From assembly GCA_041671125.1 (NCBI GenBank), contig JBAZCA010000003.1, positions 128,689-192,688 of the forward strand: a DNA stretch of 64,000 nt. The letters are read 5' to 3'. A program made the position numbers and the translations under genes. The notes under the pieces are model-generated. The model had not been told where the DNA came from. It saw only the letters and a program-made list of their open reading frames with translations, and made no database searches. Below, in pieces: positions 38,413 through 47,399 of the stretch (positions are counted from its first letter, which is position 1; every line of letters begins with the position of its first letter). Source of the stretch: Patescibacteria group bacterium (GTDB lineage: Bacteria > Patescibacteriota > Patescibacteriia > Patescibacteriales > JBAZCA01).

Positions 38413-39125
38413 AAGTAATTCTTCAAAAATATATCGCCCAATCAGGCCTCGCTTCAAGGCGGGCGGCTGAAATTTTGATCCGGCAGGGAAAAGTTTTCGT
38501 AAACGGCAAAAAAGCGCAAATCGGCATGGCGGTTGACATCGGTGACGCGCCTGAGGTTAAAGTTGGCGGGAAAAAATTAAGGTTGCCAGAAGAGAAAATA
38601 TATACTAAATTGAATAAGCCATCGGGCTATACCTCAACCGCTAGGAAGTTTAAGGGGGAAAAAAACGTTTTTGACCTCATAAAACTAAAAGAGCGGCTGT
38701 TCATAGTCGGACGGCTGGATAAAGACAGCCGGGGGCTAATCCTTTTAACTAATGACGGCGAGCTCGCCAACAAACTTACCCATCCGCGCTACGAAAAGGA
38801 AAAAGAATACATAGCAGAAATTTCAAATTCCAAATTCCAAATTCCAAAAAGAGAAAAAGAAGTAGTTTTTCAATTTACAGAAGGAATTGATATCGGGGAG
38901 GGGGATGGAATAGTAAAAGCTAAGAAAGTAAAATATCTGGGTGATAATAAATTCAACTTAGTTTTAACCGAAGGGAAGAAGCGGCAGATTCGGCGGATGT
39001 TTAAGAAGCTCGGGCTGGAAGTAAGAGATCTTGTCCGGGTAAGAATCGGCAAGCTGGAACTCGGGAATTTAAAAGAGGGGGAATGGAAAAAACTGACTGA
39101 GGACGAAATAAAAAAACTGAAGTAA
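38409..39125 (+). CDS. RsuA/RluB-family pseudouridine synthase
   Basis: N-terminal S4 domain (SRRAAEILI..G.V.VNG). Catalytic GRLDKDSRGLILLTNDG. Confidence 0.85.
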   Translation: MKVILQKYIAQSGLASRRAAEILIRQGKVFVNGKKAQIGMAVDIGDAPEVKVGGKKLRLPEEKIYTKLNKPSGYTSTARKFKGEKNVFDLIKLKERLFIVGRLDKDSRGLILLTNDGELANKLTHPRYEKEKEYIAEISNSKFQIPKREKEVVFQFTEGIDIGEGDGIVKAKKVKYLGDNKFNLVLTEGKKRQIRRMFKKLGLEVRDLVRVRIGKLELGNLKEGEWKKLTEDEIKKLK

Positions 39126-40731
39126 TGAGAAAATTAAATAACACGGAGAGGTGGCCGAGTGGCTGAAGGCACGACTCTCGAAAAGTCGCAGGGCGGCAAC
39201 GTCCTCCAGGGTTCAAATCCCTGCCTCTCCGCCAATTTTTACTTTTTGTGAAATCGTAAGAAACAGCCTCGGCGCAAAGCGCCTCGGCATGGTATTTTTC
39301 CGCAATTTTAAAGGCATTTTTGAAATCCAAAACCAAAGTGCGGTCGGCAATGTGGAAGTTCGAACCAATCTTTTTGAGAAAATCCCGAATCCTTTCGGGA
39401 TTTTCTTGTTGAGCGTATTTTTCGGCTTGGTTGGCGTCTTTTAGAAAGGCAATGGCAAGTTCGAACCGATTATTGCTCTTTCGCCCAAAAGCAGAGATTT
39501 TTTCTTCCAAATCTTTTTTAGCGAGAATGAGCTTGTACTTTTTGGCGGTATATTCTGTTTGCGACAAATTGCCGTCCAGTTGCAAGTCAAGTAAACGATC
39601 AAGTTTTGTTTCTATCTCTACAAGCTCATTTCTCGCTTTTTGGGCGAAAGAGCTTTCCGTTTGGGCAATTTTAATTTTTTCGTTTTCGAAAAAATTGATT
39701 GAAGCGTTTGCCCAAGCGGAAGACAAAGAAACTTTTTTGATTTCCTCTTTTATTTGAGCAGTGATGGCGTCCTCTCTGGCATACCTTTGCGAACAAGGAT
39801 TTTTCCGTTTGGTGCATCGCAAATAGTTGTGACCTTTTTGCGTTTCGGTGGTAATGAAACAACCGCACTCTCCGCAACGGAAAAATCCTCTAAAAATGTA
39901 CGGTTTGAGTTTTGGCGATTTCGGTTTGCTCTTGTTCGCCATCACTTCTTGAACGGAATCAAAAAGTTTCTTTGTGATAATCGGTTCATGCTTTCCGTCA
40001 TACAATTCACCGTTATATTCAATCATTCCATAATAGATTTTATTTTTGAGCATATACTGATAATTTGAGACGGAAAGCATTTTGCCTTTCTTGCCAACCA
40101 AGCCAATGGAATTGATAATCTTTCGGATTTGAGCGAGGGGGTATTCGCCAGTTGAGTACATTTCAAAAGCCCGCTTGATGTATTTTGCCTTTTCTTTGTC
40201 CACGGCGATACAGCGGGCGTTTTTGTCGTTCACATAGCCAAGTGGCGCCCAAGCAGGCCATATTCCATTGCGCAATTTCTGGCGAATACCCCTCTTTATA
40301 TTTTCCGAAAGATTATCCACATAGTATTTTGATTGCCCAAAAGCGATGGACAACATAAATTTTCCTTGCGGCGTCGGATCAAACCAAAAAGTAGGAAATT
40401 TTAGCGTGGTAATTTTTCCAGTATCTACGAGATAGATTATCCGTCCGCCGTCTATGGAATTACGAGCTAATCTATCGGGGTGCCACGCTAAAATTCCCTC
40501 AGCTTCATTTTTCTCTATGCTCGCCACCATATCGTTAAAAATCTCTCTGCCCGGCTCTTTGGCGGTTTTGCTTTCCACAAATTCACGGACGATATTCAGG
40601 TTTTCTTTTTTGGCATATTCTCGCAATTCAAACATTTGTGCCTCGATACTCAAAACCTGCCTTTCGGGTTCGTCCGTGGATTTGCGGGCATAGAGAAAAA
40701 TCTTTTTGGTTTGTAAATTTATGTTGTCCAT
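39001..40731 (-). CDS. Large serine recombinase (integrase). The conserved part ends near 39235; the ORF then reads antisense through tRNA-Ser.
   Basis: Catalytic-Ser motif IFLYARKSTDEPERQ, recombinase domain, zinc ribbon CGECG...LRCTKRKNPC, C-terminal coiled coil. The last 76 codons are the antisense of the tRNA and the rluB-like gene's 3' end. Confidence 0.85.
   Translation of the reverse strand: MDNINLQTKKIFLYARKSTDEPERQVLSIEAQMFELREYAKKENLNIVREFVESKTAKEPGREIFNDMVASIEKNEAEGILAWHPDRLARNSIDGGRIIYLVDTGKITTLKFPTFWFDPTPQGKFMLSIAFGQSKYYVDNLSENIKRGIRQKLRNGIWPAWAPLGYVNDKNARCIAVDKEKAKYIKRAFEMYSTGEYPLAQIRKIINSIGLVGKKGKMLSVSNYQYMLKNKIYYGMIEYNGELYDGKHEPIITKKLFDSVQEVMANKSKPKSPKLKPYIFRGFFRCGECGCFITTETQKGHNYLRCTKRKNPCSQRYAREDAITAQIKEEIKKVSLSSAWANASINFFENEKIKIAQTESSFAQKARNELVEIETKLDRLLDLQLDGNLSQTEYTAKKYKLILAKKDLEEKISAFGRKSNNRFELAIAFLKDANQAEKYAQQENPERIRDFLKKIGSNFHIADRTLVLDFKNAFKIAEKYHAEALCAEAVSYDFTKSKNWRRGRDLNPGGRCRPATFRESCLQPLGHLSVLFNFLITSVFLFRPQSVFSIPPLLNSRVPACRFLPGQDLLLPARAS
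39145..39234 (+). tRNA. tRNA-Ser (anticodon CGA), CCA encoded
   Basis: Hand-folded: acceptor GGAGAGG/CCTCTCC, anticodon loop cuCGAaa, long variable arm, T-arm CAGGGTTCAAATCCCTG. Confidence 0.9.
39216..39234. repeat. attL core (19-bp direct repeat, tRNA-Ser 3' end)
   Basis: AATCCCTGCCTCTCCGCCA, identical to 45158-45176. Confidence 0.85.
39266..39362. repeat. Inverted-repeat copy A (3' end of the recombinase gene)
   Basis: 95/97 identical to the reverse complement of 40846-40942. Confidence 0.9.
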
Positions 40732-40845
40732 ATTGTTTTTAAATTAGTTTTTGGGCAATCAAAGAAAAATACGCTCAACCTTTCGCCAAAGGCGAAAGAA
40801 AAAAGATTGGTTTGCAAAATTTCATTTTGCCAGAGCTTCGCTCTG

Positions 40846-40942
40846 CGAACTTCCGCATTGCCGACCGCACTTTGGTTTTGGATTTCAAAAATGCCTTCAA
40901 AATTGCGGAAAAATACCATGCCGAGGCGCTTTGCGCCGAGGC
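40846..40942. repeat. Inverted-repeat copy B (orphan duplicate of the recombinase 3' end, plus strand)
   Basis: Encodes ...ADRTLVLDFKNAFKIAEKYHAEALCAEA, as does the recombinase C-terminus. Confidence 0.9.
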
Positions 40943-40975
40943 TTCCAACCCTGATTTTTCGAAATGTGATTCTTG

Positions 40976-41281
40976 GCGGTGTTTTTTGAACGAAGTTCGA
41001 ACATTTTTTGAGCAAAACCCCCAATAAGGAAGCCAGCCCCGCCGTCGCTCGGAAACCTCGCCACCCCGCAAAAAAGTTTTCTTCACATTTTATATTTTGC
41101 GCGCGCCGATTTTTTTCTTCTAAAAGGAAAAGAAAACTTTTGTGCGGGGTTCTGCTCTTAACGAGCAGGACGGCGGGGCTGTCCGCTTTTTGTATTCGCT
41201 CGGGCGTGGCGGAATTCCCCCCAAACCCCCCTTCCGCCACGCCCTCGCTTCCGACGGCAATTTTTTTGGCGGAATTTTCTT
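40976..41281. repeat. 306-bp perfect inverted repeat, left copy
   Basis: Exact reverse complement of 44776-45081, checked base by base at both borders and via identical mirrored ORF translations. Confidence 0.9.
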
Positions 41282-41392
41282 TCTTTTCCTTGTCCCACCC
41301 TCCCAACGCGGAAAAGACAAAGGAACTCCCTTTTTTCTTTACTATTTCCAAATATTTTGGTAATATTATATTGTGGTTGCGAAGTTTGAACA

Positions 41393-41405
41393 TATAATCA
41401 TTATA
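41393..41405. promoter_or_regulatory. Palindrome TATAATcATTATA over the putative -10 upstream of the controller gene (candidate C-box/operator)
   Basis: Perfect 13-bp palindrome flanked by a 7-bp inverted repeat ATTGTGG/CCACAAT, 27 nt before the XRE gene start. Confidence 0.35.
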
Positions 41406-41431
41406 CCACAATTTAATATTACTAATAAAAT

Positions 41432-41626
41432 ATGGTAGAGTCAAGCAAAATCAAACGAATAAGGGAAAAGCTAGGTTTGTCGCAAGAGAAACTGGCTCGT
41501 CTTGCCGATGTTTCAAATAATACGATAATAAACATAGAGGCAGGCAAACAAGATAATCCGACCATTGATACACTTAAAAAAATCGCAAAAGCGTTAAATG
41601 TGCCGATTGAGGATTTAATAAAATAA
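41432..41626 (+). CDS. XRE-family HTH protein (likely R-M controller C-protein)
   Basis: LGLSQEKLARLADVSNNTIINIEAG HTH. 64 aa. Directly precedes the REase gene. Confidence 0.8.
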   Translation: MVESSKIKRIREKLGLSQEKLARLADVSNNTIINIEAGKQDNPTIDTLKKIAKALNVPIEDLIK

Positions 41627-41630
41627 AACT

Positions 41631-42479
41631 ATGGAAACAAATTTACTTATCGCTATCACAAATTTAGTTAAAAACCCAATTACAAATTTGGTTTCTCATT
41701 ATCGTGCCGCCAATCGGGCTAACCATATGGGCGACGCTTTAGAATTTTATATTAAGGATTTATTTTGCAATTCCCTAAATGAAAACAACCTTGAAAAGAA
41801 AAATGAAATTTACAGTAAGTATTTTTCCTACATTGGAAACCAAAATAATCCGCCAGATATTATTATCAAGCAAGGCGACGCAATAGAGGTAAAAAAGATT
41901 GAAAGTTTGCGCTCGGGAATTGCTCTTAATAGTTCATATCCAAAAGATAAGTTGTATTCTGATAGCCCGATGATAACAACGGCTTGCAGAAATTGTGAAG
42001 ATTGGCGAGAAAAAGATTTGGTGTATGTTGTTGGTGTTTCAAAAGATGACAAACTAAAAGCACTTTGGCTGGTTTATGGTAATTGCTATTCAGCAAGTAA
42101 AGAAGTTTACGAGAGAGTAAGAGATAAAATTTCAAAAGGTGTTAACGAATTGCAAGATGTTGAATTTTCAGAAACCAATGAGCTTGGTAGGGTCAACAGA
42201 GTTGATCCACTAGGAATAACTTATTTGCGTATTCGTGGAATGTGGGGCATTGAAAATCCCATCAAGGTTTTTGATTATGTCGTCCCGACAGAGCAAAATC
42301 CCGAATTTTTTGTTAATGCAATTTTGCTGAAAGAAAAATATTTGTCCTTTCCAGAAAAAGACAGAAAAAATCTTGAGAGTTTGGTTGGTTCTAACTTTTC
42401 AATAAAAGATATAAAAATAAAATCGCCAAACAACCCAGCAAAATTGCTGGAGGCAAAATTATTGAGTTTTAGAAAATAA
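41631..42479 (+). CDS. Type II restriction endonuclease (PD-(D/E)xK)
   Basis: NNPPDIIIKQGDAIEVKK gives a PD...EVK catalytic motif. 1-nt gap to the MTase gene. Confidence 0.7.
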   Translation: METNLLIAITNLVKNPITNLVSHYRAANRANHMGDALEFYIKDLFCNSLNENNLEKKNEIYSKYFSYIGNQNNPPDIIIKQGDAIEVKKIESLRSGIALNSSYPKDKLYSDSPMITTACRNCEDWREKDLVYVVGVSKDDKLKALWLVYGNCYSASKEVYERVRDKISKGVNELQDVEFSETNELGRVNRVDPLGITYLRIRGMWGIENPIKVFDYVVPTEQNPEFFVNAILLKEKYLSFPEKDRKNLESLVGSNFSIKDIKIKSPNNPAKLLEAKLLSFRK

Positions 42480-42480
42480 T

Positions 42481-43458
42481 ATGAAATTAGCTTCTTTATT
42501 TACAGGTGCGGGCGGACTAGATTTAGGCTTTGAAAGAGCTGGTTTTCATATTGTTTGGGCAAATGAATATGACCCAACAATTTGGGAAACATTTGAGCAT
42601 AATTTTCCCAAAACAAAACTAGACAAAAGAAGTATTGTAGATGTTCCAGCGTCTGAAATTCCAGATGTTGACGGAATAATCGGCGGGCCACCTTGTCAGA
42701 GTTGGAGTGAGGCAGGTGCTGGTCGTGGAATAAATGATAAGCGAGGTCAATTATTTTATGATTATATCCGTTTGCTAAAAGAAAAACAGCCAAAATTTTT
42801 TCTTGCAGAAAATGTATCGGGTATTTTACATCCAAAACATAAAGAGGCATTTTCAAATATAATCAAGGAATTTGAAAATGCGGGATATGAAATTTCATGT
42901 AAATTGCTAAATGCGAATGATTACGATGTTCCAGAGGATAGACTTCGAGTTATTATCGTTGGCTACCACAAAAGATTAAAAAAGAAATTTGAGTTTCCAG
43001 AACCACAAAAATATAAACCTGTATTGAAAGACGCTATTTATGATTTGCGTTTAGCAAAACCAGCTTTAGATAAAAATAAGACAAACGGCGATGAGCTAAA
43101 GATTCCAAACCATGAATATATGAATGGCGGTTTTTCTTCAATCTATATGTCAAGAAATCGAGTGCGTTCGTGGGATGAACCCTCTTTCACAATTCAAGCT
43201 GGAGGTCGCCACGCACCTATTCACCCTCAAGCACCAAAAATGAAATTCATAAGCCAAAACGAAAGAATTTTTGTTCCCGGAAAAGAAAATTTGTATCGCC
43301 GTTTGTCCGTAAGAGAATGTGCAAGAATTCAGACATTTCCTGACGATTTTATTTTCAAATATCGTGATATTGCTGACGGATATAAAATGATTGGTAATGC
43401 CGTTGCTGTAAATTTTGCTTTTCACTTGGCAAAAAAAATAATGGACGATCTAAAATAA
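42481..43458 (+). CDS. DNA (cytosine-5)-methyltransferase, HaeIII-like
   Basis: Motif I LFTGAGGLDLG, motif IV GGPPCQSWS, ENV, QTFPDDF, GNAV. From memory, the target-recognition region (ALDKNKTNG...PNHEY...MSRNRVR.W.EP.FT.QA.GR...HPQAP) closely resembles M.HaeIII. Confidence 0.9.
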   Translation: MKLASLFTGAGGLDLGFERAGFHIVWANEYDPTIWETFEHNFPKTKLDKRSIVDVPASEIPDVDGIIGGPPCQSWSEAGAGRGINDKRGQLFYDYIRLLKEKQPKFFLAENVSGILHPKHKEAFSNIIKEFENAGYEISCKLLNANDYDVPEDRLRVIIVGYHKRLKKKFEFPEPQKYKPVLKDAIYDLRLAKPALDKNKTNGDELKIPNHEYMNGGFSSIYMSRNRVRSWDEPSFTIQAGGRHAPIHPQAPKMKFISQNERIFVPGKENLYRRLSVRECARIQTFPDDFIFKYRDIADGYKMIGNAVAVNFAFHLAKKIMDDLK

Positions 43459-43461
43459 TTT

Positions 43462-43992
43462 ATGGAGAATTTTTTTAATCAAATCACAAATTTCTATAAT
43501 CACCCATTATTTATTATAGTTGGCGGAATAACTGTAACCATAGCGTTTATTGCATTTGTTTACAGATTGGCTTGTTGGACTTTTGGAATTACTCCGATTG
43601 TTTTTCGCTTGGGAATTGCCCTTTGGCAAAGAAAGGTGGCTATTTTTGGAAGTGTTGAAATATTTGAAAGCTTGAAAAATTCTCTTATTGATTCAAATAT
43701 TTTCAAAAGTAAAAACATCATACATATAAGTTTAGATAATATCGACAAGGCAAAGAATGAAACTATTTTTTTGGTCGATTGGGAAACATTTGGAGACAAA
43801 ATAGAGCAGATTTTTTCTGCAAGAAAAAATCATCAAACGGCAATAGTGATTTATGCTAAACCAGCAAGTATTCCTCAAGAAAAAATGAGCGATATCGCGA
43901 ATCGTGCAAATACCGTTGTCGTAAATTTTCGAGGTCGTCTTTTGAATGATATTTTGACCTCACTAATCACGACAAGCTATGACCGAAATTAA
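43462..43992 (+). CDS. Membrane-anchored protein with cytoplasmic Rossmann-like (alternating beta/alpha) domain; candidate effector/sensor
   Basis: TM helix PLFIIVGGITVTIAFIAFVY plus a second amphipathic hydrophobic segment, then strand-like KVAIFGS / IIHISL / IFLVDW / AIVIYA / VVVNF. Overlaps the next gene. Confidence 0.6.
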   Translation: MENFFNQITNFYNHPLFIIVGGITVTIAFIAFVYRLACWTFGITPIVFRLGIALWQRKVAIFGSVEIFESLKNSLIDSNIFKSKNIIHISLDNIDKAKNETIFLVDWETFGDKIEQIFSARKNHQTAIVIYAKPASIPQEKMSDIANRANTVVVNFRGRLLNDILTSLITTSYDRN

Positions 43993-44764
43993 TATGTATT
44001 TGAATCAGATATTACAAAAATATAATGGGAGAGATATTTCAGGCTATTCCAATGCACTTTCTCAACTTCAAACGTCCTTGAAAACATGGGCATCGTCTTG
44101 TTATGCAAATCTTTTGTATTCTGGCTCTCGAGCAAAAGGCACGGCGATATCTCTTGCGTCTGATGTAGATTATTTAGTTTCTTTGACAAGTAGCTGTAAC
44201 GAAAATAGCGGTGGTCTAAAAAGTATTTACGATTCTTTGTATACAACATTGAAAAGTAAGTATCCATCAGCTAGTAAACAAAATGTTTCCGTAAGAATAA
44301 ACTTGAATGGATTAGAAGTAGATATAACCCCAGCAAGAAAACAAACGGGAAATACGAACGACCATTGGTTATATGTCTCGAAACTTGACACAAGAAAGCA
44401 AACAAATATTCAGAAGCATATCAATGATATATCTCAATCGGGCAGAATAAACGAGATAAAATTGTTGAAGATTTGGAGAGAGTTAAACCACCTTGATTTT
44501 TCATCAATATATTTGGAATACCTGCTTGTCAATAATATTTTGCTGAATAAATCAAAAGATGAAAATAGCCTTGGGGATAATGTTTGGCACGCTCTTAATG
44601 AATTAGCAAAAACTCAAGGCAATCCATTGTTTGCAAGAATTGTCGACCCAGCCAACTCTGCAAATATTCTTTCCGATCTTTTGACAAGTACCGAAAAGAA
44701 TAAGATAATAAGCCAAGCACAAACAGCAATTCGTCAAACAGATTGGAATCAAATTGTTTGGTAG
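43979..44764 (+). CDS. Minimal Pol-beta-fold nucleotidyltransferase, cGAS/DncV (SMODS/CD-NTase)-like
   Basis: GSRAKGTAISLASDVDYLVSL (GS...DxD), third acidic residue in GLEVDITPA, then TNIQKHI...IKLLKIWR helical-domain pattern. An alternative ATG at 43994 is 1 nt after the upstream stop. Confidence 0.65.
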   Translation: MTEINMYLNQILQKYNGRDISGYSNALSQLQTSLKTWASSCYANLLYSGSRAKGTAISLASDVDYLVSLTSSCNENSGGLKSIYDSLYTTLKSKYPSASKQNVSVRINLNGLEVDITPARKQTGNTNDHWLYVSKLDTRKQTNIQKHINDISQSGRINEIKLLKIWRELNHLDFSSIYLEYLLVNNILLNKSKDENSLGDNVWHALNELAKTQGNPLFARIVDPANSANILSDLLTSTEKNKIISQAQTAIRQTDWNQIVW

Positions 44765-44775
44765 TTTGGATTTAT

Positions 44776-45081
44776 AAGAAAATTCCGCCAAAAAAATTGC
44801 CGTCGGAAGCGAGGGCGTGGCGGAAGGGGGGTTTGGGGGGAATTCCGCCACGCCCGAGCGAATACAAAAAGCGGACAGCCCCGCCGTCCTGCTCGTTAAG
44901 AGCAGAACCCCGCACAAAAGTTTTCTTTTCCTTTTAGAAGAAAAAAATCGGCGCGCGCAAAATATAAAATGTGAAGAAAACTTTTTTGCGGGGTGGCGAG
45001 GTTTCCGAGCGACGGCGGGGCTGGCTTCCTTATTGGGGGTTTTGCTCAAAAAATGTTCGAACTTCGTTCAAAAAACACCGC
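44776..45081. repeat. 306-bp perfect inverted repeat, right copy
   Basis: Exact reverse complement of 40976-41281. An imperfect extension of about 9 bp lies outward. Confidence 0.9.
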
Positions 45082-45157
45082 AGAGAATCAGCGGTAAATT
45101 TCAAAAGAAAGTTTGGGTTCGGGAGGCATACGCCTCCCGCCCGGCGCAGGCCGGGCG

Positions 45158-45176
45158 AATCCCTGCCTCTCCGCCA
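45158..45176. repeat. attR core (19-bp direct repeat)
   Basis: AATCCCTGCCTCTCCGCCA, not embedded in a foldable tRNA. Confidence 0.85.
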
Positions 45177-45191
45177 GATAAAATTTAATTT

Positions 45192-45881
45192 ATGTATTTG
45201 GAAAAATTCAGCGAATTTTTAAAGACAGTTGATTTGCAGGGTTTTAGAAAAAAGTATAGCCGGGTAAAAATTGTTGAAATGGATTTAAGTAAAGACATTC
45301 AGGCTATTGAATTATTGTATCGGGTGTATTGGGATGAAAAAAAGTTTTTATCCTTTGATGATTTTTACGACCGCTATTTTAGCGAGAAAAGACAAGCGGC
45401 GGAGAATTTTCGTATCAGATCAACTATGTGTAAAGATTGTTTCCGCCGCGGCTTGAAAGCAAGGATTTATAGAACCTGGGCAGGACTAATAACACAGATT
45501 CACGCCGGGTACGTGGCCGAATTTGTTTTTGGCGAAGGAACGGTTTCTATGTCTGCCGAACTTGACCATCAGGGAGCGGATATAAGAGTAAAATATAGGG
45601 GTCACTTTTTAAATTATCAGGTTAAAAAAACCAGCTATAGCGGCGTAAAAAGCGGACGGCCGTTGCCACGGAAGGCTAAACTTGAAGGTGAGTCAATTGA
45701 TATTAAATATGAGGTCCCTAGTTGTCTTCAAAACCCAAAAACAAAAAAAGGCGAGCTCAGAGAACCTTATTTAAGGTTCTGTAAAGACGAGAGAATAAAG
45801 TCTTTTGATAACGGCTTCGTGGTTTTCACTACGAAAATTTTTAAAGATAAAAAAAGAGAAATTGATTCAAGGTCAAAATAG
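45192..45881 (+). CDS. Putative type II restriction endonuclease (TaqI-like family, tentative)
   Basis: LKARIYRTWAGLITQIHAGY...ELDHQGADIRV...NYQVKK gives a D...(Q)xK nuclease-like core. From memory it resembles R.TaqI. Convergent with the MTase gene and overlaps it by 9 nt. Confidence 0.5.
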   Translation: MYLEKFSEFLKTVDLQGFRKKYSRVKIVEMDLSKDIQAIELLYRVYWDEKKFLSFDDFYDRYFSEKRQAAENFRIRSTMCKDCFRRGLKARIYRTWAGLITQIHAGYVAEFVFGEGTVSMSAELDHQGADIRVKYRGHFLNYQVKKTSYSGVKSGRPLPRKAKLEGESIDIKYEVPSCLQNPKTKKGELREPYLRFCKDERIKSFDNGFVVFTTKIFKDKKREIDSRSK

Positions 45882-47399
45882 CTTAAGAGCCGTTTTTACC
45901 GACGCAATCGCCTTTTCGGCGATTTTTTTGTACTCAGGGTTAATTTCAAAGCCGATATAATTTTGATTTAGTTCTTTGGCGGCCGCGCATTCAGCTCCGC
46001 TTCCCGCGAAGGGAACAAGTATAACGCCATTTCCTTTCGGCATGGCCGATCTGATAAGCCGGCGGCAAATCTCTAAAGGTTTCTGAGTCGGATGCTTTAT
46101 TATATCGTGGCCGATATGTTTTTTTAATTCTCTTGGCGCGAAAACTCCGCCCCCGCAAGTTTTACAGATAAACCACCTCTCGTTCATGCCCGCTCCCCCG
46201 GCCAAGGCCGGAATCTTTATAACATCTCTCGGTAAGGCGCCTCCTTCGTGAGCATTATATACGGTTTCTTTTCCATTCTTACTGTAACGACCAACCGTTC
46301 CTTTGCGTATTTTTCCGGCCGCTCCATTTAAAAAACCTTCGGTGTAAGGCTCCCGCACTTCGTCCCGGTTATAGATCGGATTGTTTTTCCAGGCGCAGAT
46401 TATGGCTTCATGGCTTCTTTGCCAAAAATTTAGAGAAGCAACGTTTTTGTTTGTATAGTGCCAAATAAGCCATCTTTTATTTATTGGTATCTCAACCGAA
46501 AGATGAGCAAGAATTTCACTAAAACCATAAATAAACATTGTGCCAGTTGGTTTTAAGACCCTAATAGATTCATCTATCCAACTTTTTGACCAACGAATAT
46601 ATTCATTCATTTCTCGTTTATCAATGTTGTTGCCAAAATCTTTACCGATATTATATGGCGGATCAATTATAATAACATCGCAACATTCATCTGGTAATTT
46701 CCTTAATTCTTCAACTGCATCATTTAAAATAATTTGATTGAGAGGTAATCTATTATTACGTTTAATATTTTTTGACGTAATCAGCTCTTTTGCAAAATTA
46801 TTTTCATCGTTTTTTATAACATCAATTACAATACCTTGTATTGTTAACGGGGTTTGTTTGGAAATAATTATGGGATCCATTGTTCTGTTGGCTGGCTGAA
46901 GTCTAATATGCCCCTTTTCTTTGTAAAACTTTTTTAATGTAGTTTGATAGTTATCAATTAAAGCAACAATTTTTTGCCCATTTTCGGCGGTATCCTGCTG
47001 TTTGACTATCACTACATCGCCGTCATTAATATTCTCTTCAATCATACTATTGCCAACAACTCTCAATGCATAGAAATTGCCAGAGCTTGGTAATTTACTC
47101 TGTGGAACGGCAATAACATTCCTTTCTTTAATAGCTTCAATGGGTTGTCCGGCCGCGATATTCCCCATGAGCGGAATATTTATCATTTTTTCGCTCTCAA
47201 AAACAGAAATCGCTCTTGGTTGATTATCTTCTTTTCTTAAAAAGCCTTTTTCCTGGAGTTTTTTTATATGAAAGTGAGCGGTAGAAACAGAAGCTATTTT
47301 TAGATGCTTCTTAATTTCTTCAAGGGAGGGGGCGTATTTATGCTTAAAGCAATATTGTTTTACAAAATCCAATACATTTTTTTGTTTTTTAGTAAGCAT
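45873..47399 (-). CDS. LexA-like repressor (wHTH + S24 peptidase) fused to a beta-class N4/N6 DNA methyltransferase
   Basis: Residues 1-200: LexA wHTH, cleavage-site IAAGQP, Ser motif VGNSM, Lys in TTLKKF. Residues about 225-508: IIIDPPYN (motif IV) precedes VPFAGSGAE (motif I), with PTQKP and a CxxC insert. Confidence 0.8.
   Translation of the reverse strand: MLTKKQKNVLDFVKQYCFKHKYAPSLEEIKKHLKIASVSTAHFHIKKLQEKGFLRKEDNQPRAISVFESEKMINIPLMGNIAAGQPIEAIKERNVIAVPQSKLPSSGNFYALRVVGNSMIEENINDGDVVIVKQQDTAENGQKIVALIDNYQTTLKKFYKEKGHIRLQPANRTMDPIIISKQTPLTIQGIVIDVIKNDENNFAKELITSKNIKRNNRLPLNQIILNDAVEELRKLPDECCDVIIIDPPYNIGKDFGNNIDKREMNEYIRWSKSWIDESIRVLKPTGTMFIYGFSEILAHLSVEIPINKRWLIWHYTNKNVASLNFWQRSHEAIICAWKNNPIYNRDEVREPYTEGFLNGAAGKIRKGTVGRYSKNGKETVYNAHEGGALPRDVIKIPALAGGAGMNERWFICKTCGGGVFAPRELKKHIGHDIIKHPTQKPLEICRRLIRSAMPKGNGVILVPFAGSGAECAAAKELNQNYIGFEINPEYKKIAEKAIASVKTALKLF

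Follow-up and report, generated by a model that had tools for sequence, protein, structure and literature searches.

The yeast 2-micron plasmid carries the FLP/FRT recombination system inside 599-bp inverted repeats and exists as two isomers. In phages Mu (Gin/G) and P1 (Cin/C) and in shufflons, inversion between repeats that contain coding sequence swaps the 3′ end of a gene, and the P1 repeats measure ~0.6 kb. Myxococcus phage Mx8 (IntP/IntX) and Sulfolobus SSV1 place the attachment site attP inside the gene of their own integrase, a tyrosine recombinase. Tycheposons and defense islands are cargo carriers that target tRNA genes. Here we analyze a 5.85-kb element inserted in a tRNA-Ser(CGA) gene of a Patescibacteria group bacterium, which lies in a 64,000-nucleotide stretch of DNA referred to as the window (assembly GCA_041671125.1, contig JBAZCA010000003.1, positions 128,689 to 192,688 of the forward strand). 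The element encodes a large serine recombinase (LSR) and contains long inverted repeats. These repeats are probably two inverted attachment-site modules of a tRNA-Ser-targeting LSR element, whose copies recombine, stay alike and invert the segments between them, and either of whose attPs can integrate. We document the anatomy of the modules and their conservation, and show that the two copies evolve in concert. Relatives include free forms that carry two attPs, one case of integration through the second attP, and both orientation isomers.

The initial annotation had likened the locus to the flip-flop of the 2-micron plasmid. The architecture bears this out: a circle is split by long inverted repeats into two segments, one of which holds the recombinase gene, each repeat contains a target site, the copies are alike, and both orientations occur among relatives. 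The replication-linked purpose of the flip-flop is unsupported here, as no replication gene was found. The element differs from the plasmid in other ways as well, since its enzyme is an LSR and not a tyrosine recombinase, it is integrative (in tRNA-Ser), its target lies inside the recombinase open reading frame (ORF), and its orientation is biased. The resemblance to Mx8 and SSV1 is functional only. There, too, integration alters or splits the integrase coding sequence, and the integrated and free proteins differ, but those elements are without an inverted spare copy of the 3′ end. Mu, P1 and the shufflons switch tail-fiber or pilin ends by means of small serine or tyrosine invertases acting at short sites, whereas here the exchanged gene is that of the recombinase itself and the repeats are the integration sites. 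With tycheposons and defense islands, the element shares its small size, its integration at tRNA 3′ ends and its variable cargo, here mostly defense genes; a double inverted attP and an attP spanning an ORF are not reported for them in the literature searched, the coverage of which was incomplete. The serine integrases (phiC31, Bxb1, A118/LI integrase; PMC3783163) share with the element their resolvase, recombinase and zinc-ribbon domains and coiled coil, as well as a short core at which crossover takes place and the hybrid junctions that integration leaves. The element departs from them in having one conserved half-site per partner, a tRNA 3′ end as target, attP within the integrase ORF and a constant second, inverted attP.

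The literature searched does not describe any serine-integrase element in which a second, inverted attP is always present, although this incomplete coverage is no proof of novelty. We conclude that the feature is genuine and conserved, and that it is a variant of the serine-integrase element that has apparently gone undescribed. If indeed undescribed, it would represent a design principle, two inverted attachment sites of which one lies inside the recombinase gene, with at least 556 matches in species-representative genomes, mostly of the still poorly understood candidate phyla radiation (CPR)/Patescibacteria, and it would be of interest to the fields of mobile elements, CPR bacteria and recombinase tools.

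The inverted repeats and their crossover core

A repeat finder returned two inverted pairs in the element. Pair I1 joins 40967–41281 to 44776–45090 (315 nt, 99% identity), and pair I2 joins 39265–39362 to 40846–40943 (98 nt, 98% identity, two mismatches). The initial annotation had described 40976–41281 as the exact reverse complement of 44776–45081, and direct comparison confirms identity at 306 of 306 positions. The near-identity it had reported between 39266–39362 and 40846–40942 likewise holds, as the 98-nt pair I2. The two hairpins it had named are both present, one per repeat copy: GGCGTGGCGGAA...TTCCGCCACGCC at 41203 and 44814, and CTGCTC-ttaac-GAGCAG at 41152 and 44889. Repeats of such length and identity cannot be a chance product. 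As proposed, they separate the recombinase (a 1.5-kb segment) from the cargo (3.5 kb).

Repeat lengths of 436 and 529 bp had been put forward for the circular form, and only the first stands. The larger value derives from closing the circle at a 19-bp tRNA-derived direct repeat (39216–39234 and 45158–45176). This direct repeat was rejected as the crossover site, because the junctions of ~20 relatives put the crossover at a 4-bp core, GCGG; the copy at 45158–45176 lies outside the element. When the circle is closed at GCGG, both copies are 436 nt long and colinear, with 417 of the 436 positions identical and the differences confined to a 27-nt patch of the left (P) arm. This diverged patch is the sole unusual trait of the window element, as the coding-side repeats of its relatives, 134 nt in length, are mostly 100% identical between copies.

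In ~20 related loci, the intact attP and both the tRNA and far junctions contain the GCGG core, which is found at all three sites of the window element too (Table 1). The intact attP reads ...AAAGTGAAAATTGGCGG/TGTTTTTTGA(N5)GTTCGAAC... At the tRNA junction, the left part is retained up to TGGCGG and is followed by tRNA antisense sequence, and at the far junction, unrelated host DNA is followed by GCGGTGTTTTTTG... The motif TTCGAAC is located at +17 to +23 from the core in P′ versus +12 to +18 in the tRNA half, a 5-bp inward shift. This shift matches the rule for LI integrase, in which the zinc-ribbon motif is 5 bp nearer the core in attB than in attP (PMC3783163). The left attP arm has at least three unrelated alleles, two of them inside the window element, and the host side of the far junction is wholly unconserved. 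Sequence comparison thus suggests that only one half-site per partner is conserved, namely P′ and the tRNA half, whose information values are overestimates owing to the patterns by which the sites were searched for. An enzyme that reads essentially one half-site per partner, a tRNA T-arm motif, would bear on how serine integrases choose site and direction and may serve genome engineering. A search for the empty tRNA-Ser site of the window genome through its flanking proteins led to nothing beyond short contigs and a second assembly carrying this insertion.

These observations can be assembled into a model. Each module consists of LSR codons 457–499, the GCGG core, a conserved tail of 16 codons plus stop, and a structured terminator region at the 3′ end. 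Once circularized, the element would have its LSR and cargo segments separated by 436-bp inverted repeats. Integration of the window element through the copy in the LSR gene split that copy into the tRNA junction (39229–39362) and the far junction (44776–45081), replacing the LSR tail with tRNA-antisense read-through, such that a tail-less LSR faces the tRNA. The other copy (40846–41281) is left as an intact inverted attP adjoining the LSR promoter, between the LSR and the cargo. Recombination between the copies would homogenize them and invert one segment relative to the other, and either attP can integrate, with the LSR-gene copy as the normal choice. Inversion is presumably ongoing, and both inversion and homogenization may be carried out by host homologous recombination between the 134-nt and 150–420-nt arms. 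The LSR perhaps adds site-specific inversion, since an enzyme recognizing the tRNA half alone would see the tRNA junction as attB-like. The spare copy would be valuable because it keeps an intact 3′ end and an intact attP after integration.

Conservation, free forms and orientation among relatives

The scan for relatives covered one genome per species and returned at least 556, of which the best 80 were fetched (L001–L080); taxon names are those of the database records. Most relatives come from metagenome-assembled genomes (MAGs) of Patescibacteria/CPR. A few record titles name other phyla, possibly as a result of binning errors, and relatives at ~62% amino acid identity are labeled Elusimicrobia and keep the layout too. 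Wherever a locus extends far enough upstream, its components are arranged identically: host DNA, the P′ arm with its repeat, 1.3–7.1 kb of cargo, the inverted repeat (intact attP and a 134-nt LSR 3′ fragment), ~114 nt, the LSR gene and the tRNA gene. The second attP (attP-2) precedes the LSR start by ~115–250 nt at every locus, and all insertions checked are in tRNA-Ser genes (GGA, GCT or CGA).

This recurrence bears on the reading of the layout as an assembly artefact or an accidental relic confined to this contig, produced by a mis-join or left behind by a second element that inserted in nested or partial fashion. Repeats are frequent points of breakage or mis-joining in metagenome assemblies; in an independent megahit assembly of an almost identical genome, a contig is broken exactly at the repeat boundary 44776, and the window carries what is probably the scar of an older element (45082–45176). 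However, a break at 44776 is the usual behavior of a real repeat, and many contigs of relatives stop inside the repeat upstream of the LSR, as a real repeat predicts. Dozens of assemblies produced independently in separate studies, and covering separate lineages, have this layout, and the window copies differ in the 27-nt patch and are therefore not a collapsed duplicate. We consider an artefact or relic extremely unlikely. One locus that keeps the layout (L042) has a contig naming and a one-base LSR frame break that suggest, without proof, a long-read assembly.

The repeat copies evolve in concert. On the terminator side, the two copies are 97–100% identical within 21 of 23 elements (90% and 94% in the other two), compared with 75–98% to the best other element, and the outer copy is nearest its own partner in 21 of the 23. 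Because identity within elements exceeds identity between elements, the duplication is old and the copies are continually homogenized. The perfect identity of the window copies had been taken as a sign of recent or ongoing gene conversion or inversion. Concerted evolution agrees with this in general terms, but the identity is not evidence of a recent event, as such repeats are the hallmark of the family.

LSRs with 96–98% protein identity occur in MAGs of different CPR classes (Saccharibacteria, Gracilibacteria, Paceibacterota, Moraniibacteriota and others), which points to recent spread over deep lineages. The defense cargo, which includes restriction-modification (R-M) systems, the cyclic oligonucleotide-based antiphage signaling system (CBASS) and others, together with LSRs up to 98% identical across CPR classes, indicates that these elements are probably a main route of immunity-gene exchange among ultra-small bacteria.

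A metagenome scan for an LSR body joined to the native tail yielded 28 contigs, some of which are ordinary integrated copies with the anchor kept in the fragment copy. Two intact attPs in inverted orientation are present on each of three contigs (L082, L089 and L092). One of them, L089, is 4.5 kb long with ends that abut inside the repeat and is probably a whole circle. A 543-kb contig (L085) has a different arrangement, in which the tRNA-Ser gene is followed directly by the inverted LSR fragment, the 114-nt region and a full-length LSR of 516 amino acids with an intact attP. This element integrated via the fragment copy, so the second attP is recombination-competent. Orientation isomers are seen in two forms. 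The LSR modules of L098 and L086 point the same way (81% identity), but their homologous cargo regions point in opposite directions (82%). In L041 and L044, the helix-turn-helix (HTH) module that normally adjoins the intact attP is at the far end and reversed, a clean inversion of the repeat-bounded segment. The proposal that the cargo is re-oriented relative to the recombinase is therefore supported by relatives, among which homologous cargo occurs in both orientations, while the orientation in the window comes from a single assembly.

Several points weigh against the reading of the repeats as two freely recombining attachment-site modules. The cargo is divergent from the LSR in 20 of 24 genome loci, co-directional in three and mixed in one, a strong bias far from 50:50, and integration through the second attP accounts for one case versus dozens of the usual form. 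The orientation bias and the lone second-attP insertion together suggest that flipping may seldom occur on the time scale of populations. Short-read assemblies are the source of the loci with reversed cargo, and repeats of 155–317 nt could occasionally be mis-oriented there; moreover, for the cargo orientation of the window, the independent assembly breaks at the repeat. Characterized serine integrases do not recombine attP with attP (PMC3783163). The excess of one integrated state could reflect a stable state, with the LSR truncated and convergent with the tRNA, or simply rare inversion.

Tandem arrays are also found, with two related elements per tRNA-Ser gene (L004 1–8733, L083 and L086) and hybrid joints composed of the left arm of one element, the core and the right arm of the next. 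Such arrays suggest that the tRNA junction of a resident element may be reusable as a target.

The element has the topology of the 2-micron plasmid, with two repeats, two unique segments and a recombinase target inside the repeats, and it might accordingly be amplified like the plasmid: the free circle would replicate, and inversion by the recombinase during replication would multiply it. However, Pfam and PADLOC reveal no replication-initiator domain among the six genes of the element. Ten cargo proteins, the largest sampled from relatives, comprise six from defense families and four with no match, in a scan against a defense library only and not Pfam. The element is overwhelmingly found integrated, and scans returned one distant relative in viral contigs and no close ones in plasmids. 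Amplification of this type is very unlikely.

The recombinase C-terminus and the second copy

The LSR contains three Pfam domains within residues 12–332: Resolvase (PF00239, 7e-20), Recombinase (PF07508, 4.5e-16) and Zn_ribbon_recom (PF13408, 2.8e-09). The residues R16-K17-S18 are invariant across 20 homologues. A PDB sequence search with the LSR matched catalytic-domain structures only; matches in annotated phages (phage integrases included) and plasmids reach at most 30% identity and are distant relatives only. A small serine invertase of the Hin/Gin/Cin type, with a C-terminal HTH, ~26-bp sites and an enhancer, is ruled out by the length of ~516 residues, the LSR domains and the attP-type sites. 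No recognizable candidate for a recombination directionality factor was found, the sole conserved backbone gene besides the LSR being that of a 64-residue HTH protein.

The LSR has two alternative C-termini. In the integrated window element, its ORF extends to 39001 and encodes 576 amino acids, reading through the tRNA antisense; an exact look-up of this protein gave no record. The plus-strand copy (40846–41281) is in frame with the last 44 LSR codons and continues as W-RCFLNEVRTFFEQNPQ-stop. In the 120 closest clusters, homologues diverge after the same tryptophan, where at least 54 read RRGRDSNPR..., the antisense of the tRNA 3′ end, versus 19 with the native RCFLDEVRTFF(E/D)(Q/E)NP. These two classes place attP within the LSR ORF and indicate that integration swaps the last 16 residues. 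For the tail codons FFEQNP, the proportions of synonymous (pS) and nonsynonymous (pN) differences are 0.70 and 0.15, respectively, so selection acts on the tail at the protein level. Past the core, the first ten codons differ little at synonymous positions (0.24), a pattern that a DNA site would be expected to show.

An AlphaFold2 model of a homologue with the native tail predicts helices at residues 338–385, 391–418, 420–441 and 445–455, followed by a return to a β-hairpin. The long coiled coil predicted at ~338–455 would fit the LSR coiled coil inserted in the zinc-ribbon domain. Residues 456–516 are modeled as a confident β-hairpin and two-helix module (predicted local distance difference test score of 80–93), in which the tail forms a helix (res. 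498–513). Because the repeat begins at residue 457, each copy would encode one whole C-terminal sub-domain. The frame of copy 2 is open for 68–113 codons in 37 loci. Its expression as a separately translated small protein is not supported, as there is no conserved ATG and no excess of third-position variation in the upstream 114 nt.

Candidate purposes of the second copy are a spare 3′ end for gene rebuilding, inward terminators that insulate toxic cargo, and an LSR operator. In the first case, the inverted copy would serve to rebuild the recombinase gene. Integration would strip the C-terminal helix and the terminator, locking the element; the 1.5-kb LSR segment would later invert across the 134-bp coding repeat, join the spare tail and restore the full-length enzyme for excision. 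This inversion could proceed via RecA or through the LSR acting on attP-2 and the tRNA junction. In agreement with this idea, the boundary of the repeat coincides exactly with the beginning of the C-terminal sub-domain, copy 2 can be read in frame up to the native stop, the tail is under purifying selection as protein, and the usual integrated form is always without it. An inverted spare also lets the segment flip back and forth, whereas a direct spare would lead to loss of the gene, and the tRNA junction is apparently a usable target, as judged by the hybrid P-core-P′ junctions of the tandem arrays (L004, L083 and L086). Yet no integrated locus was seen with the LSR segment flipped and the cargo co-directional (L081 and L098 are ambiguous). 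Moreover, a single-attP design would regain the tail by mere excision, and the identity of the far repeat arm is left unexplained. We therefore regard gene rebuilding as a tentative possibility.

Extended further, the same idea makes the element a self-latching, self-rebuilding device, a two-state switch that governs excision without a separate directionality factor, which we consider conceivable but doubtful. Integration might turn the LSR off or change its direction, and a spare cassette of sub-domain, attP and terminator might rebuild the enzyme by inversion of its own gene. The inversion might join attP-2 to the tRNA junction, which would be attB-like if only the tRNA half is recognized, or might be carried out by RecA across the 134-bp coding repeat. 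The layout is like that of synthetic recombinase latches and asks whether a serine integrase controls its own activity by rearranging its own gene.

The remaining candidate purposes follow from the noncoding part of the module. A terminator-like hairpin and T-tract in LSR sense are found in both copies. The structured region (41028–41281 and 44776–45029) has a conserved multi-stem fold, with compensatory double changes at 27 of 42 predicted pairs among 14 diverse relatives, and its C-rich loop TTCCCCCCAAACCCCCCTT is nearly invariant. An Rfam scan of 38900–45400 identified the tRNA only and no family for the repeats, and counts of G-U versus C-A favor neither strand. The region could be an elaborate terminator, a small RNA or a DNA structure. 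Conceivably, the second copy has a cis-regulatory or insulating role only, with terminators that face the cargo, attP serving as an LSR operator by divergent promoters, and inversions arising as rare by-products. The hairpin and T-tract in both copies, the covarying pairs, the strong orientation bias and the position of attP-2 relative to the LSR start in all loci are all in line with such a role. However, a terminator or operator requires neither 134 nt of coding identity to the 3′ end of the gene nor near-perfect identity between copies. The copy is also recombination-competent, as L085 shows, and both isomers exist. A purely cis-acting role is thus unlikely, and we favor the reading of the repeats as two attachment-site modules that recombine with each other.

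Features of the element and its flanks

The features of the element are summarized in Table 1.

Table 1 Features of the window element and its surroundings (window coordinates)
Feature	Coordinates	Strand	Basis
tRNA-Ser(CGA), integration target; 3′ half is the conserved host half-site (Bx)	39145–39234	+	ARAGORN, Rfam tRNA
Crossover core CCGC (GCGG on the recombinase strand) of the tRNA-proximal junction, named attL: P arm, core, tRNA	39229–39232	+	Junctions compared in ~20 loci
P-arm half of the split repeat copy: IRa (39265–39362) and 32-nt core-proximal arm (39233–39264); LSR codons 457–499	39233–39362	−	Repeat comparison
LSR gene, residues 1–499; native 16-residue tail missing	39235–40731	−	Pfam, translations, homologue tails
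Conserved 114-nt region upstream of the LSR start codon	40732–40845	−	Comparison with relatives
Intact inverted second copy, attP-2	40846–41281	+	Repeat comparison, translation; L085 integrated via this copy
attP-2: LSR 3′ fragment, as IRa′ and arm	40846–40943, 40944–40975	+	
attP-2: core GCGG	40976–40979	+	
attP-2: P′ arm and native tail codons to the stop	to stop at 41025–41027	+	
attP-2: structured terminator region	to 41281	+	
Promoter region and 64-residue HTH (Xre/C-protein type) gene (41432–41626)	41282–41626	+	Pfam, PADLOC
Cargo: NgoPII-type restriction endonuclease (41631–42479) and C5 cytosine methyltransferase (42481–43458)	41631–43458	+	Pfam, PADLOC
Cargo: CBASS pair, membrane effector (43462–43992) and CD-NTase/SMODS cyclase (43979–44764)	43462–44764	+	PADLOC (Effector 3.4e-82, Cyclase 2.5e-84)
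P′-arm half of the split copy, far junction: structured terminator region, tail codons, P′ arm, core CCGC (45078–45081)	44776–45081	−	Repeat comparison, junctions
Outside the element: ~76 nt like a decayed LSR 3′ end, then a 19-nt copy of the tRNA-Ser 3′ end (45158–45176)	45082–45176		Sequence comparison

Upstream of the LSR gene, two small hairpins adjoin the repeat boundary (40813–40845). They show compensatory differences, with CAGAGC/GCTCTG in the window versus CCGTGC/GCACGG in relatives. A T-run follows on the LSR strand, and the hairpins may be a candidate terminator that shields the LSR promoter.

The HTH gene and the 150-nt region upstream of it (41282–41637) form a backbone module common to elements with differing cargo (L001, L010, L017, L019, L022 and others). 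This block of ~350 nt is kept in many loci, and the HTH protein is probably the regulator of the element, beyond being a mere control protein of the NgoPII system.

Outside the far junction, 45082–45176 is probably the scar of an older element, for which the tandem arrays in relatives can be cited; the tRNA fragment lies distal to the scar. The host flank past the second repeat arm contains a TaqI-like endonuclease gene (45192–45881, plus strand) and, as its partner, a gene for a LexA-S24-methylase fusion (45873–47399, minus strand). The latter is a single ORF of 508 amino acids that combines a LexA DNA-binding domain, an S24 autocleaving peptidase domain and an N6/N4 DNA methylase. The gene is called likewise in the independent assembly, and a cleavable repressor of the LexA type on an R-M methylase is unusual.

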